The notes beneath the pieces were generated by a model, which was not told the origin of the DNA, did no database searches, and saw only the letters and a list, made by a program, of their open reading frames with translations. This document shows, piece by piece, positions 4,201 through 59,557 of a DNA stretch of 64,000 bases. This DNA is from a virus (Duplodnaviria > Heunggongvirae > Uroviricota > Caudoviricetes). Numbering within the stretch: position 1 is the stretch's first letter; each line of letters starts with the position of its first letter. The stretch lies in the IMG/VR virus record IMGVR_UViG_3300048670_001104, one strand, 5' to 3'. Made by a program: the position numbers and the translations under genes.

Positions 4201-5091
4201 TTAGGCGAATGCTGTGCCGTTGTTGCCGACGCAATACCATTTGGAGTTGATATATTGTAGAGTCACAGCTTGTCCAATTGCACTGAAAGTGATAGTGCCT
4301 GTTCCAGAGGTTTTCCATCCCGCATTGGTCACAGTGATGGTCATGTTTCCAACATACACAGCCATCATTATGGTCTTGATCTGACCGGCAAATCCTGCGG
4401 CCAGTGTGGCAGTAGATGCTCCACTGGTGGTAAGATATGTAGCGGTGGTGGTCAGGCTCACCACCCCGGCTGTGCCCACCAGGCTTTGGCTGCTGGGAAG
4501 ATAGATCGGATCCATGTTTCGGCTACTATCGAACACAGAGATTGTGGTGCCACCGTCGCTGGTGGTGAAATCGTATGTGTAAGTTCCGCTCTGAGAATAA
4601 CTTATTGTTCCTGCACTATAACCCTGTAGGTTACCGATTCCCACGCTGACCGCAGCGGGCAATACCACAGTTGATGCTGTGTTGAGGATGGTGATGGCCA
4701 CTCGAACTATACCAAAGTTGCCAGCAACCGGAAAGTTTGTAAATGCCAAAGAGATAGAACTTCCACTGCTTGCTGTGACAGTTTGATAATGTCCAGCAGT
4801 GTAATCGATGGTCACTGTGCCTGTCAAGGTTCCCAGGATGGCTGCCACAGCACTGAAGTCCGAGATGTTGGCATTGCTGAGTGGACTTCCACCCATGTTA
4901 TTGTTCAAAGCAGTACCGGTGAGTGCTGCTTTGAGTACCGCGTTGGTCTGCAGATCCGTGATCTCGTTGGCTGCATACTGAAAGTTGGTCTTGGTGTTGG
5001 TGAAGTTGTCACGGAAACCTTGACTGTTGTTGTCTTGTCCGGCTATTGGATATGTGCCGTCGATGTCGTTTGGGTTAATTGCACTGGTCAT
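4201..5091 (-). CDS. virion structural protein (tail fiber / baseplate-like, S/T/G-rich)
   Basis: 296 aa, S/T/G/N-rich beta-like composition. Located in the structural block. AGGAA RBS. ATAAATA motif about 45 nt upstream on the minus strand. Confidence 0.55.
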   Translation of the reverse strand: MTSAINPNDIDGTYPIAGQDNNSQGFRDNFTNTKTNFQYAANEITDLQTNAVLKAALTGTALNNNMGGSPLSNANISDFSAVAAILGTLTGTVTIDYTAGHYQTVTASSGSSISLAFTNFPVAGNFGIVRVAITILNTASTVVLPAAVSVGIGNLQGYSAGTISYSQSGTYTYDFTTSDGGTTISVFDSSRNMDPIYLPSSQSLVGTAGVVSLTTTATYLTTSGASTATLAAGFAGQIKTIMMAVYVGNMTITVTNAGWKTSGTGTITFSAIGQAVTLQYINSKWYCVGNNGTAFA

Positions 5092-32892: not shown

Positions 32893-32971
32893 TACTTTTT
32901 GGTGGTCAATGTTGCCAAAATATCTAAAAAATAAACGGCGCACATAAATACACTTGTAACCGGAGGCACCC

Positions 32972-33403
32972 ATGTTACACACCATCACCCAACCCAACGA
33001 CTACCTATTGAATCTCATCAAAGACGACCCGGTGCGGCCCGAGATACCGCTGAGCGATCGAGTGAACAACAACAGCCGAATCTATGTATGGAAGAATGGC
33101 GAGGCGACTGCCGCGGTCACCTGCGTGAAGTTCCTTGAGTCAGTGCCTGCTGCTGTGGAGGACATGGCCGAACTGGTCGAGAGTGCCACCACAGCGGTGT
33201 TCTACACCATCTGGAGTTATGCCGCTGGTGCTGGGCGTACCTTGATCCAAGAAGCCCAGAAGTCGATTGAATCGGAGTTTCCGGGCATTCAGACCTATGT
33301 GACCTTGAGCCCCAAGACAGAAATGGCCCGGCGTTTCCATATCAAGAATGGTGCTAGGGAACTGCGAGAAAACCTCAACACCATCAACTACATCTACAAG
33401 TGA
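32972..33403 (+). CDS. GNAT-like acetyltransferase (tentative)
   Basis: 143 aa. GGAGG RBS. VFYTIWSYAAGAGRTLIQEA resembles GNAT motif A. ATAAATA motif 22 nt upstream of the ATG. Confidence 0.5.
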   Translation: MLHTITQPNDYLLNLIKDDPVRPEIPLSDRVNNNSRIYVWKNGEATAAVTCVKFLESVPAAVEDMAELVESATTAVFYTIWSYAAGAGRTLIQEAQKSIESEFPGIQTYVTLSPKTEMARRFHIKNGARELRENLNTINYIYK

Positions 33404-43930: not shown

Positions 43931-44044
43931 TTAGTCCATGAGTCGTCGGGCGCCTTCGTGATCTCCGCGCTGGGCCAATATTGCAGCAGCACGAGCACGG
44001 CCCATTTCTATCAGAAAATAGTAAATGGATTGAAGAAACTTCAT
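43931..44044 (-). CDS. small protein (37 aa, tentative)
   Basis: MKFLQSIYYFLIEMGRARAAAILAQRGDHEGARRLMD. ATGA junction with the upstream stop. Confidence 0.3.
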   Translation of the reverse strand: MKFLQSIYYFLIEMGRARAAAILAQRGDHEGARRLMD

Positions 44045-44226
44045 ATCATCCAACTCTTGTTGCGAGCTGAATACATCAGTTCGAATCTGCGCTCCAGTGC
44101 TTCCACTTGCTGAATTGTGGTAGGACGGTGTGACAAGATGTACTGTTCCATTCTGGTTCCATAGTGCTGTGGCTCACTGAACCAATCCACAGCTCGTTTG
44201 ACATAGTCTCTCAGTGTCGTGAACAT
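44041..44226 (-). CDS. hypothetical protein
   Basis: 61-aa ORF. Confidence 0.45.
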   Translation of the reverse strand: MFTTLRDYVKRAVDWFSEPQHYGTRMEQYILSHRPTTIQQVEALERRFELMYSARNKSWMI

Positions 44227-44227
44227 G

Positions 44228-44509
44228 TTATGCTCCTTTGGTATGTGCGTTGGCCTGATATGCTTTCATAATGCCTTCGCCAAATTTGGCGTAATCAAAC
44301 TTGGCAGCTTCACGCAGAACCTTCTGGGTTTCTTGCATGATTTCAGTGGCTGCGTCTGTAGTGGCTCGGACGGCCTTTTTGGTGTAATCAGCCTGGGTGT
44401 CAATGAAATGATTCATGGACTCGGCGATGTGCTCGTTGGTGACGAAAGTCTTGACGAATTGTTTTTTACTGTTTTGAACAGTGTCGATCAGGGTGTCTGC
44501 TGTGAACAT
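44228..44509 (-). CDS. hypothetical protein
   Basis: 93 aa. AAGGAG RBS. Its 5' leader is homologous to the hsp20 leader. Confidence 0.55.
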   Translation of the reverse strand: MFTADTLIDTVQNSKKQFVKTFVTNEHIAESMNHFIDTQADYTKKAVRATTDAATEIMQETQKVLREAAKFDYAKFGEGIMKAYQANAHTKGA

Positions 44510-44571
44510 GGGTTTCTCCTTAGATAAGCAAGTAGACTATAGGACCCGCACCATGCAGCATCCTATGTGCT

Positions 44572-44600
44572 ATTATATATGACAAATTGCGGCAATGCAA
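44572..44600 (-). promoter_or_regulatory. sigma70-type promoter TTGCAT-N17-TATAAT
   Basis: Minus-strand reading of gctattatatat...atgcaa. Confidence 0.6.
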
Positions 44601-57185: not shown

Positions 57186-57494
57186 TCACTTGGAATCAGG
57201 TTCTAGTTTGATCTGCAATGGGTATTCTTGCTCTCGAGCACTGGCAGTGACTTCTGTGCCTTTTTGCTCGGCAATCTCAAAAGGCAGCACAGCCACTGTG
57301 GCTTGACCGTGCTCATGGATACCCACTGTGAGTTGCGTGGCAGTTTCTACTGTGTAATCAAAAAACTCCACCAAACTGCCTACCACAAATTCCATTGTGG
57401 TGGTGTTGTCGTTGATATAGATCACACGATAAAGAGGCGGCTCTTTGACGGCTTTTTTTGTTCGAGTAATAGTTGCTGCTTCTGCGTTTGACAT
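57186..57494 (-). CDS. clpS: Clp protease adaptor ClpS
   Basis: KEPPLYRVIYINDNTTTMEFVVGSLVEFFDYTVETATQLTVGIHEHGQATVAV matches the ClpS core. Start at the Met preceded by GAGGA. Confidence 0.85.
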   Translation of the reverse strand: MSNAEAATITRTKKAVKEPPLYRVIYINDNTTTMEFVVGSLVEFFDYTVETATQLTVGIHEHGQATVAVLPFEIAEQKGTEVTASAREQEYPLQIKLEPDSK

Positions 57495-57509
57495 AGTGGT
57501 CCTCATGGA

Positions 57510-57531
57510 GTGGCAGGGTGATTCCTGCCAC
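57510..57531. other. 8-bp GC-rich hairpin (GTGGCAGG-gtgatt-CCTGCCAC) between hsp20 stop and clpS start
   Basis: Seen in the sequence. T-rich on the plus side only. Candidate processing/attenuation site or terminator for the convergent plus-strand transcript. Confidence 0.4.
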
Positions 57532-57549
57532 TGTATTTACACAATTATA

Positions 57550-57996
57550 TTACGAATTGTAAGCAATCGCAATACTCTTTGGCTTGGCTGACTCAGGAAC
57601 TTCACGTTCCAGCAGCACAGTCAAGATACCATCACGAATGGCAGCACCTTTCACTTCCACATGCTCAGCAAGCGGAAATGTCTGTTTGAAATCTCTAGCA
57701 GAGATTCCACGGTGCAGATATTCGTGTTCTTGGTCTTTTTCAGTTTTCTTGGCACCTGTAATGGTGAGCAAGCGTTGATCAAGACTGATATCAATTTCGC
57801 CTTCAGCAAATCCAGCCACAGCCACTTCAATGGTCACGGTGTGATCACCGGTCTTGATCACATTGTGAGGTGGGTAGTTGGTTGAACTTTGAGTCTGTGT
57901 GACACGCTGTAGGTCGGTGAACAGATCGTCAAAACCAATACCAAATTTGTTGAATGCGGGGATATCGAAGGCACGAAGGTGCAGAGTTTTTGTCAT
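57550..57996 (-). CDS. small heat-shock protein Hsp20 (IbpA-like)
   Basis: YPPHNVIKTGDHTVTIEVAVAGFAEGEIDISLDQRLLTITGAK...YLHRGISARDF matches the alpha-crystallin domain. AAGGAG RBS. Confidence 0.85.
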   Translation of the reverse strand: MTKTLHLRAFDIPAFNKFGIGFDDLFTDLQRVTQTQSSTNYPPHNVIKTGDHTVTIEVAVAGFAEGEIDISLDQRLLTITGAKKTEKDQEHEYLHRGISARDFKQTFPLAEHVEVKGAAIRDGILTVLLEREVPESAKPKSIAIAYNS

Positions 57997-58064
57997 GTTG
58001 TTTCTCCTTTAATAAGCAAGTATGACTATGAATGTAGACCCCACCATGGGCATCTACAAGTGTA

Positions 58065-58093
58065 TTTATACATAAAATCTCAATGATTGTCAA
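58065..58093 (-). promoter_or_regulatory. promoter TTGACA-N17-TATAAA containing an exact TATAAATA (T4 late-type) element
   Basis: Minus-strand reading of tgtatttatacataaaatctcaatgattgtcaa. Lies upstream of hsp20. Confidence 0.55.
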
Positions 58094-58352
58094 GTTTCAT
58101 CGGCTCGATCATTCTGTAGTTTCGGAGTTCCGGATGTTTAGGATTCCAAGTCAGGGCAAAAAAACTATACATCTCATCGGGCTCTAGCACTACCCTAGTG
58201 ACATATTTTACCGTTTTGATTTGGTAAGCAATCGTATGCTTCTGATACCAGATCAGTAATTCTTCATGTAATATATGATTGACCCAAGCTGCTTGGCTAG
58301 GCTTGTCGTTGACTCCAAGATCAGCAGCAAGGAGATCAAACGCGATATACAT
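58080..58352 (-). CDS. hypothetical protein coupled to clpX
   Basis: 90 aa. TGATG 1-nt overlap with the clpX stop. Confidence 0.5.
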   Translation of the reverse strand: MYIAFDLLAADLGVNDKPSQAAWVNHILHEELLIWYQKHTIAYQIKTVKYVTRVVLEPDEMYSFFALTWNPKHPELRNYRMIEPMKLDNH

Positions 58353-59557
58353 CAGTCTGTGCCGTCTAACGCAGCAGGTGCTAGTACCATGCTGGGCTCG
58401 ATCTTAACGACCTTGATGCCCATTCCTGAATAACGACGTAGATTAAACATGTGTGGTATCAAGGTGCGTTCAATCTCTGAATGCAAGCCTCTAGCACCTG
58501 TTTTGTTTGTGAGTGTGCGTTCTGCTATGAGATCCAGGGCAGATTCAGTGAACTCCAACTCCACGCCATCTTCTTTGAACAGCCAGTGATACTGTTCAAT
58601 ATAGTTGTTCTTGACTTCGGTAAGGATGCGGATCAAGTCTGCTTTTGACAGTTCACGCAGGCTTACCCAGTTGGGAAAGCGTCCCACAAACTCTGGAATC
58701 ATACCAAACTTCACAAGGTCGTCCGGTGTGGTCATGTCCAGGTCTGTGTCTATACTGGCTTGTACTCGGGCATTAAATCCGATTGATGTGCCTTGCACAC
58801 GATTCTTTACTATGCTGTCTAGCCCTACAAAAGCACCACCGGCAATAAACAAGATATTCTTGGTATCGATCTCGATCATGTCACCGCCGGGGTGTTTGCG
58901 CCCGCCCGCAGCACTCACGCGGCACACTGTGCCTTCTACCATTTTCAGCAGAGCCTGTTGCACACCTTCTCCGGATACATCGCGTGTGATTGAGGTCGAT
59001 TCCCCTTTACGAGCGATCTTGTCAATCTCATCCACAAACACAATGCCTCTCTGTGTTTTGGCAATATCGTTGCCCGATGCAGCATACAGTCTGCTGATTA
59101 GACTTTCCACATCATCGCCCACATAACCTGCTTCGGTGATTGATGTTGCATCTGCGATGGCAAAAGGCACGTCAAGATATCGTGCCACACTTTTGGCCAG
59201 CAGGGTTTTGCCCGAGCCAGTTGGTCCCAACATCAGGATGTTGGCTTTGTCCAGTTCGGGTTCCGCTGTGGTCTTGCTGATGCGTTTGTAATGATTCACA
59301 ATGGCCACGGCCAACATGATCTTGGCAGAGTGTTGGCCTATCACATATTGATCTAGGTATTTCTTCAACACCATGGGATCCATCTTGTCTGATGGTTGTG
59401 GAGCGATCTCCACCACAGGTGTTTCATCCTTGAGCAAGTCCTGGCAGAAGTCCACGCATTCGTTGCAGATACCTGCGTATTCACCCACGATGAGGTTCTT
59501 TACCGAGTCTTTGTTTTTGCCGCAGAAGCTGCAATTGGTGTGTGTTTCTTTGGTCAT
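58352..59557 (-). CDS. clpX: ATP-dependent Clp protease ATP-binding subunit ClpX
   Basis: N-terminal C4 zinc finger CSFCGK...CNEC. Walker A GPTGSGKT. Extended similarity to ClpX throughout. Confidence 0.9.

Follow-up and report, generated by a model that had tools for sequence, protein, structure and literature searches.

A ROSE-like leader, a candidate RNA thermometer, upstream of hsp20 and of an orphan gene in a tailed phage and its relatives

The 64,000-nt stretch of DNA analysed here (the window; IMG/VR record IMGVR_UViG_3300048670_001104) belongs to a tailed phage and carries tail-fibre, baseplate and endolysin genes. Two of its minus-strand genes are the subject of this work (Table 1). 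The first, hsp20, is predicted to encode an IbpA-like small heat-shock protein that is 42% identical to E. coli IbpA and scores 115 bits against the NCBIfam IbpA model, under the cut-off of 212. The second encodes a 93-aa protein with an invariant C-terminal KFDYxKFGEGIMKAY (alignment A5), for which the AF2 model predicts three helices (pLDDT 83). No match to this protein was found in Pfam or PHROG, nothing significant was returned by a PDB sequence search or by Foldseek against the PDB, and NCBIfam gave only a 15-bit hint of phasin_2. The leader that it shares with hsp20 is the sole functional clue for the 93-aa protein. A 61-aa ORF without a family match (44041..44226, minus strand) begins at the stop codon of the 93-aa gene (TAACATG), and this junction suggests that the two may be translationally coupled.

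The hsp20 gene lies in a proteostasis cluster (57186..59557, minus strand) that includes genes for ClpX (401 aa) and a ClpS adaptor, together with a 90-aa ORF; no ClpP was seen near this cluster. In the interval from the hsp20 stop codon to the ClpS-like gene, a stable hairpin, AGUGGCAGG-AAUCAC-CCUGCCACU, is present at 57509..57532 (minus strand). It follows TGTGTAAATACAG and has no ROSE box; it may serve in processing or stability, or mark a second start region.

Directly 5' of the start codons of hsp20 (57994..57996) and of the 93-aa ORF (44507..44509) lie leaders of about 62 nt, at 57997..58058 and 44510..44566 (both minus strand). Each includes a 5' hairpin (hairpin I), a CUUGCU box and a AAGGAGAAAC ribosome-binding site. 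The initial annotation of this DNA had reported closely similar leaders upstream of hsp20 and of gene 44228..44509, with unrelated proteins downstream; its strings and coordinates were essentially right, and the proteins are indeed unrelated. The range that it gave, 57997..58093, covers the leader but also takes in a promoter-like TTGACA-17-TATAAA (58065..58093, minus strand), in which the spacer is 17 nt and TTGACA is conserved in close relatives (L001-L008).

Table 1 Features of the two leaders and their genes in the window. The predicted bulged G of hairpin I is in square brackets; SD, Shine-Dalgarno sequence.
Feature	Position	Strand	Basis or remark
-35-like hexamer TTGACA, hsp20 promoter	58088..58093	-	Read by eye; inside the 3' end of the upstream 90-aa ORF
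-10-like TATAAA(TA), hsp20 promoter	58063..58070	-	Relatives have TATAAATA or TATAATAAATA in the same place
Hairpin I, hsp20 leader: UGUAGAU[G]CCCA-UGG-UGGGGUCUACA	58033..58058	-	RNAfold MFE; covariation across relatives, with 91-93% of cells paired
Linker GUCAU, complement of AUGAC (start codon and 2 nt, 57992..57996)	58022..58026	-	Sequence
ROSE box CUUGCU (anti-SD), hsp20 leader; G58017 is the predicted bulged G	58015..58020	-	Alignment to ROSE_3 and relatives
SD AGGAG, hsp20	58004..58008	-	Pairs with the ROSE box; intervening loop UAUUAA (58009..58014)
hsp20, IbpA-like small heat-shock protein, 148 aa	57550..57996	-	Pfam PF00011, E 1e-16; PHROG 432, E 2e-39
Promoter-like TTGCAT-17-TATAAT, 93-aa gene	44572..44600	-	Read by eye; arrangement conserved in relatives
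Hairpin I, 93-aa gene leader: AUAGGAU[G]CUGCA-UGG-UGCGGGUCCUAU	44539..44566	-	RNAfold and covariation; geometry as in hsp20
ROSE box CUUGCU, 93-aa gene leader	44527..44532	-	Pattern and ROSE_3 alignment
SD AGGAG, 93-aa gene	44516..44520	-	Sequence
93-aa conserved phage protein, three helices	44228..44509	-	868 homologue clusters, all hypothetical

Both leaders terminate at the ATG and lie downstream of promoter-like hexamers, and the placement is identical in more than 130 relatives. A consensus sigma-70 scanner called neither promoter, that of hsp20 being missed because its second hexamer ends in A. The T4-type late promoter motif TATAAATA occurs at hsp20, yet with 2 sites observed against 3.3 expected it shows no enrichment in the window. 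In relatives, the TATAAATA or TATAATAAATA found at the hsp20 promoter resembles a T4-type late promoter. A 15-nt sequence, ATAAATACACTTGTA, is common to the hsp20 promoter and start region (58056..58070, minus strand) and to 32944..32958 (plus strand), the latter copy being upstream of ORF 32972..33403. The -35 of the 93-aa gene sits in a palindrome, TTGCnnnGCAA (44586..44600, minus strand), which takes the form TGTTGCnnnGCAACA in relatives L087-L127. Conserved across diverged phages, this palindrome may function as an operator or as part of a promoter specific to the phages.

The likeness between the two leaders is confirmed. The 23-nt pattern TACTTGCTTATYWAAGGAGAAAC matches only two sites in the 64 kb, at 58000..58022 and 44512..44534, and still only these when three mismatches are allowed, while 0 chance matches are expected (100 shuffles). 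The 3' parts of the leaders are nearly identical; the 5' parts are unlike in sequence and alike in fold (RNAfold). Hairpin I has the same form in both, namely a lower stem, a U.G pair, a bulged G, an upper stem and a UGG loop, and four of its base pairs differ between the leaders by compensatory exchange. With a covariance model made from relatives, the two sites scored 52.1 and 35.4 bits, the next best hit in the window being 12.1 bits (E 0.75), and no further copy was detected in the 64 kb by regular expression or by the covariance model with filters off.

Comparison with Rfam related both leaders to the ROSE elements. ROSE_3 (RF02523), the short two-hairpin RNA thermometer of Pseudomonas ibpA that was demonstrated experimentally (Krajewski et al. 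2013, PMC3669281), aligned to each over model positions 1-69 of 69, with scores of 24.1 and 26.4 bits (E 0.005 and 0.0013) against a gathering score of 43; the search was confined to a 301-nt region per site, and ROSE_3 was the sole meaningful Rfam match at each. Relatives scored 25.8-28.4 bits with this model. At the gathering threshold Rfam gave no match in the whole window or in 18 further phage loci, and none of the phage elements scored, in the window or in relatives, reached the gathering score of any Rfam ROSE model. Features common to the ROSE_3 alignments are GAUGCC...GGGUC in hairpin I, the box ACU(U/C)GCU, and AGGAG. The box and the Shine-Dalgarno (SD) sequence can pair as C-G, U-A, U.G, bulged G, C-G, U-A and a further U-A, forming a hairpin II that agrees with the ROSE_3 consensus structure. 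Both leaders have the ROSE signature, U(U/C)GCU facing AGGAG with a predicted bulged G. The same local bulged-G geometry has been solved in the crystal structure of the oppF ROSE stem (PMC11342760). The fourU signature is absent from both leaders, with CUUGCU, and not UUUU, opposite the SD. A weak overlap with the Rfam freshwater-2 RNA (RF02980) was also recorded at 57994..58090 (minus strand; 18.4 bits, gathering score 49.9). Its likeness lies mainly in the AAAGGAGAAAACAAAUG ribosome-binding region, and the freshwater-2 metagenomic motif may come from related phages.

IMG/VR contained 140 relatives of hsp20 and 57 of the 93-aa gene, on contigs of up to 524 kb that were mostly from freshwater samples. 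A search of INPHARED phages with the locus returned ClpX-like fragments only and no other relatives. The initial annotation had proposed a covariance search in related phages, and had named the absence of the element upstream of hsp20 in relatives as evidence against its reading; the leader is present in nearly all relatives of both genes, at more than 130 related IMG/VR phage loci. Among the contig matches listed, in a scan biased by the E. coli sequence included in the query, no cellular donor of hsp20 was recognised, cellular identities being at most 45%. One contig binned to Bacteroidota (L138, NZ_JBBAKG010000031.1, 'MAG: Haliscomenobacter sp.', 70 kb) encodes an Hsp20 82% identical to that of the window behind the same leader (31.3 bits), and is probably a mis-binned phage contig.

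In many relatives dnaK lies about 2 kb upstream of hsp20, inserted between hsp20 and the homologue of the 90-aa ORF, and has its own copy of the same type of leader (for example L013, 1002..1062, before a 623-aa Hsp70). The hsp20 leader then follows the dnaK stop codon, without a promoter. Phage hsp20, dnaK and the 93-aa gene are all preceded by one conserved architecture, which runs from hairpin I through a single-stranded linker, the CU(U/C)GCU box, a short A/U loop, AGGAG and 5-7 nt to the AUG.

Conservation of structure was assessed in two alignments, as a plain MAFFT alignment of the leaders (A2) misplaced hairpin I and the SD. A3 comprises 63 sequences in an N-padded structural alignment anchored on the bulge, and A6 comprises 68 diverse sequences aligned with a covariance model, including distant viral hsp20 and dnaK leaders. 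In hairpin I, 93.4% of cells were paired in A3 and 94.0% in A6, compared with 41-59% and 43-55%, respectively, when the partners were slid; both alignments were fitted to the structure, which inflates the paired percentages and affects pair-type diversity and the slid controls less. Both sides change in 9-10 of the 11 pairs (A3, A6), and the covariation score was reached by none of 500 shuffles. The compensatory changes that the initial annotation called for are therefore plentiful, across relatives as well as between the two copies. Frequent U.G pairs argue for an RNA on this strand. Hairpin I is stable (about -12.5 kcal/mol by RNAfold MFE for the hsp20 leader) and covaries. It lies at the 5' end or close to it and includes a Y.G pair, a bulged G and a C-G pair that is invariant. 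The GC hairpin of the initial annotation is this stable hairpin I, which contains no SD, and not the sensing hairpin. The 3' strand of hairpin I, GGG(U/C)C, is itself SD-like. A terminator at this position was ruled out, there being no U tract after the hairpin and the pairing, not the sequence, being conserved.

The same observations bear on whether the inverted repeat acts as DNA, as an operator for a transcriptional repressor in the style of CIRCE/HrcA or HAIR/HspR. Its location just 3' of a -10-like element and before heat-shock genes would suit such an operator, but the stem is conserved in pairing and not in sequence, in DNA its U.G pairs would become A/C mismatches, the element is retained between dnaK and hsp20 where there is no promoter, and it bears no likeness to the CIRCE or HAIR consensus. 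We consider this reading very improbable.

In the region of hairpin II, CU(U/C)GCU was found in 67-68 of the 68 diverse sequences, and the bulged G and AGGAG are nearly invariant. The third position of the box, which faces an invariant G, forms U.G in 39 sequences and C-G in 29 (A6); this alternation fits only the register with a bulged G. Hairpin II does not otherwise vary and, because it is invariant, lies beyond a test by covariation. The U.G or C-G pair, the bulged G and the invariant C-G make up a motif that is the same in both hairpins (A6 columns 8-10/32-33 and 56-58/70-71), and the copy in hairpin I could be a duplicated recognition module.

A further helix involves the linker. Most hsp20 relatives have a GUCAU linker, the complement of AUGAC (the start codon with the next two nucleotides), and where codon 2 differs compensated linker variants occur (UUUGACA:UGUCAAA in L032; UUAGUCA:UGACUAA in L022 and L037). 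Most leaders of the 93-aa gene have GUAAAC:GUUUAC instead (AUG UUU AC). The 93-aa leader of the window is without a linker:start helix, and its 3' half (AUAGUC-UACUUGCUUAU; 44510..44540, minus strand) resembles the hsp20 leader when compared with L087-L127. This suggests, on sequence comparison, that the 3' half was converted to the hsp20 type in the clade of the window, a conversion that would partly account for the close likeness noticed by the initial annotation.

The predicted stability of hairpin II is low. Taken alone, it was calculated for the two window leaders at +1.0 and +1.2 kcal/mol at 37 °C, -0.3 and -0.2 at 25 °C, -1.4 at 15 °C and -2.7 at 4 °C. For the ROSE_3 consensus, hairpin II comes to -6.2 kcal/mol at 37 °C; values for functional Pseudomonas hairpins, which have G-C clamps, lie between -4.1 and -7.6 kcal/mol, and the clamp above the core is needed in P. 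putida (PMC3669281). No such clamp is present in the window leaders, and hairpin II alone falls short of the Pseudomonas-type stability that would mask the SD at low temperature. Addition of the linker:AUG helix in the hsp20 leader of the window gave a composite whose energy rises from -8.2 kcal/mol at 4 °C through -5.7 (15 °C) and -3.5 (25 °C) to -0.8 (37 °C).

Folding of the leaders for occlusion of the SD, as the initial annotation had proposed, gave an equivocal outcome: by standard folding the SD is about half unpaired at all temperatures, the mean unpaired probability across families being flat at about 0.42-0.45 from 10 to 45 °C and equal to that of shuffled sequences. For the hsp20 family, the energy required to open the ribosome-binding region (SD to AUG) decreased from 9.6 kcal/mol at 5 °C to 3.6 at 45 °C. 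At 15 °C it was 8.1 kcal/mol against 5.8 in shuffled-linker controls, and it was higher than the controls in 39 of 45 leaders. For the 93-aa family the opening energy was no higher than in shuffled controls, and for the two window leaders at 15 °C it was not above shuffles (6.55 vs 6.93 and 6.01 vs 7.65 kcal/mol). The assignment as a thermometer thus rests on motif homology, conservation and gene context, and thermodynamic prediction does not establish it.

Gene context was surveyed by two gene-blind scans of IMG/VR for the box and the SD, in which the counts are among the 120 stretches listed for each. With CTTGCTTA-N1-5-AGGAGAAA, at least 76 model-positive sites were obtained: 68 before hsp20, 6 before dnaK, 1 P93-like and 1 unclear, the hsp20 products among the matches listed being 27-84% identical to that of the window. 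With CTCGCTTA-N1-5-AGGAGAAA, at least 80 sites were obtained: 61 before hsp20, 8 P93-like and 11 others, which include truncated hsp20 genes, an AhpC-type peroxiredoxin (L339) and a rubredoxin (L401). Pooled, hsp20 accounts for 129 of the 156 sites listed, and dnaK is also represented. The peroxiredoxin leader is on the minus strand of L339 (box at 4874 of the reverse complement), and the leader at L401 1912..2101 precedes a rubredoxin gene that is itself immediately upstream of hsp20; these cases hint that oxidative-stress genes join the regulon of the leader in some phages.

These counts weigh on the possibility that the leader is a constitutive expression cassette spread by recombination, in which a 5' stabilising hairpin is combined with a strong ribosome-binding region and the box is an enhancer or spacer. 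Hairpins at the 5' terminus do stabilise mRNAs (discussed in PMC3669281), the SD is strong, its predicted masking is no better than in shuffles, and the 3' half of the 93-aa leader, which looks copied from the hsp20 leader in the clade of the window, indicates that leaders recombine. The cassette is nevertheless disfavoured by the tight association with stress genes, which is highly specific for hsp20 and dnaK in the scans. Only one such pair of leaders occurs in a 64-kb window full of other genes, the ROSE signature is matched down to the U/C alternation opposite G, and the linker covaries with the start codon. We regard a constitutive cassette as improbable.

In another reading, the main role of the leader is that of an operator bound by a trans-acting protein, for which the phage IbpA-like Hsp20 is the strongest candidate, and the leader would sense aggregation and not temperature. 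Putative binding of Hsp20 would repress hsp20, dnaK and the 93-aa gene until the protein is titrated by aggregating proteins, a scheme compatible with thermometer behaviour, as in E. coli. The precedent is the self-repression of IbpA (Miwa/Cheng/Taguchi; PMC10474464, PMC10410725), in which likewise a ROSE-type leader is combined with an IbpA-type protein bearing R93 and Y34, and one regulator could serve several mRNAs. In E. coli, Cedecea and Vibrio, IbpA binds the ROSE-type 5' UTR of its own mRNA and represses translation, R93 being irreplaceable and Y34 important (PMC10474464), and E. coli IbpA also controls rpoH (PMC10410725). The equivalents in the phage Hsp20 family, R101 and Y41, are invariant columns in an alignment that includes E. 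coli IbpA (A4), several chaperone genes have the same leader, and a strictly conserved box in a helix too weak to repress alone has the profile of a protein-recognised motif. Retention of R101 and Y41, together with the presence of the Y.G/bulged-G/C-G motif in both hairpins, makes a protein-mediated aggregation-sensing circuit plausible. On the other side, R101 is weak evidence for binding because this arginine is common across small heat-shock proteins. The neighbouring positive charges of E. coli IbpA at 97 and 98 are not conserved in phage Hsp20 (A4), binding by the phage protein is putative, and the box is equally invariant in bacteria in which ROSE thermometer function has been demonstrated. 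An operator of this kind is possible, if rather unlikely.

A more elaborate form of this circuit would comprise a proteostasis regulon of hsp20, dnaK and the 93-aa protein, joined in some cases by peroxiredoxin or rubredoxin, held down by putative binding of the phage Hsp20 to the motifs of both hairpins and freed when Hsp20 is titrated by misfolded or assembling virion proteins. The weak ROSE helix would then provide at most a low-temperature set-point, and the 93-aa protein would be an unrecognised component of the chaperone network. We regard this proposal as rather unlikely.

From the homology to ROSE_3 and the gene context, it seems likely that each site is an mRNA 5' untranslated leader of the ROSE-like class that exerts cis-acting translational control. 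The proposal of the initial annotation, a candidate RNA thermometer or shared regulatory leader, is in this sense upheld, as a candidate. At low temperature or without stress, the box would pair with the SD through C-G, U-A, U.G or C-G, the bulged G, C-G, U-A and one or two more U-A pairs; in most family members the linker would also pair with the start codon, and both helices would limit binding of the 30S subunit. Warming would melt this labile structure and increase translation of the phage chaperones, while hairpin I would stay folded as a folding scaffold, a 5' stabiliser or both, as proposed for Pseudomonas. Since the sensing helix is far weaker than that of Pseudomonas, any set-point should be lower, which would fit cool freshwater hosts.

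The phage leaders share with Pseudomonas ROSE_3 a two-hairpin 5' UTR of about 60 nt before an IbpA-type gene, a GC-rich hairpin I with GAUGCC...GGGUC and a bulged G, and a hairpin II formed by U(U/C)GCU and the SD with a bulged G. They differ in scoring 24-28 bits, under the 43-bit gathering threshold, and in a hairpin II of 5-7 pairs that is closed by U-A, where Pseudomonas has G-C clamps, and is predicted to be about 7 kcal/mol less stable. In Pseudomonas the AUG is unpaired, but many phage members have the linker:start-codon helix in addition, and the phage promoters look sigma-70-like or TATAAATA-like and not sigma-32. Finally, the leader is phage-borne, and dnaK and the 93-aa gene are also among the genes that it precedes. 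Classical ROSE (RF00435, rhizobia) and ROSE_2 (RF01832, enterobacterial ibpA) have the same U(U/C)GCU/SD core with a bulged G and also control small heat-shock genes, and in classical ROSE the AUG too lies in the last helix; they differ from the phage leaders in their longer UTR with three to four hairpins. Neither model gave a significant match in the leaders, the one ROSE_2 hit being of 21 bits (L063).

ROSE-like thermometers are familiar from bacteria. About three phage RNA thermometers have been reported in the literature that could be searched, none of them ROSE-like (PMC11182007), and no ROSE element on dnaK was found in the literature searched. Those of lambda cIII, SPbeta blyA (fourU) and a gut-phage sigma-70 gene (fourU) are, like the leader described here, cis-acting and temperature-responsive (PMC11182007, PMC10586365). 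They belong to the switch or fourU classes, none is ROSE-like or on a chaperone gene, and the present family is far more widespread. It is a leader family new for phages, with a weaker clamp-less core, a frequent start-codon helix and a wider chaperone regulon as its variant features.

In environmental phages, of which many are jumbo phages, small heat-shock and Hsp70 genes commonly have a conserved leader of the ROSE type. Current Rfam models miss it, and a seed alignment for a new Rfam model is now available. Its very weak ROSE helices constitute a natural series for the study of how the set-point of a thermometer is tuned, and its presence points to a role in stress for the widespread 93-aa orphan protein. 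Should the leader prove functional, these phages would tune the supply of chaperones to temperature or proteotoxic stress independently of the sigma-32 response of the host.
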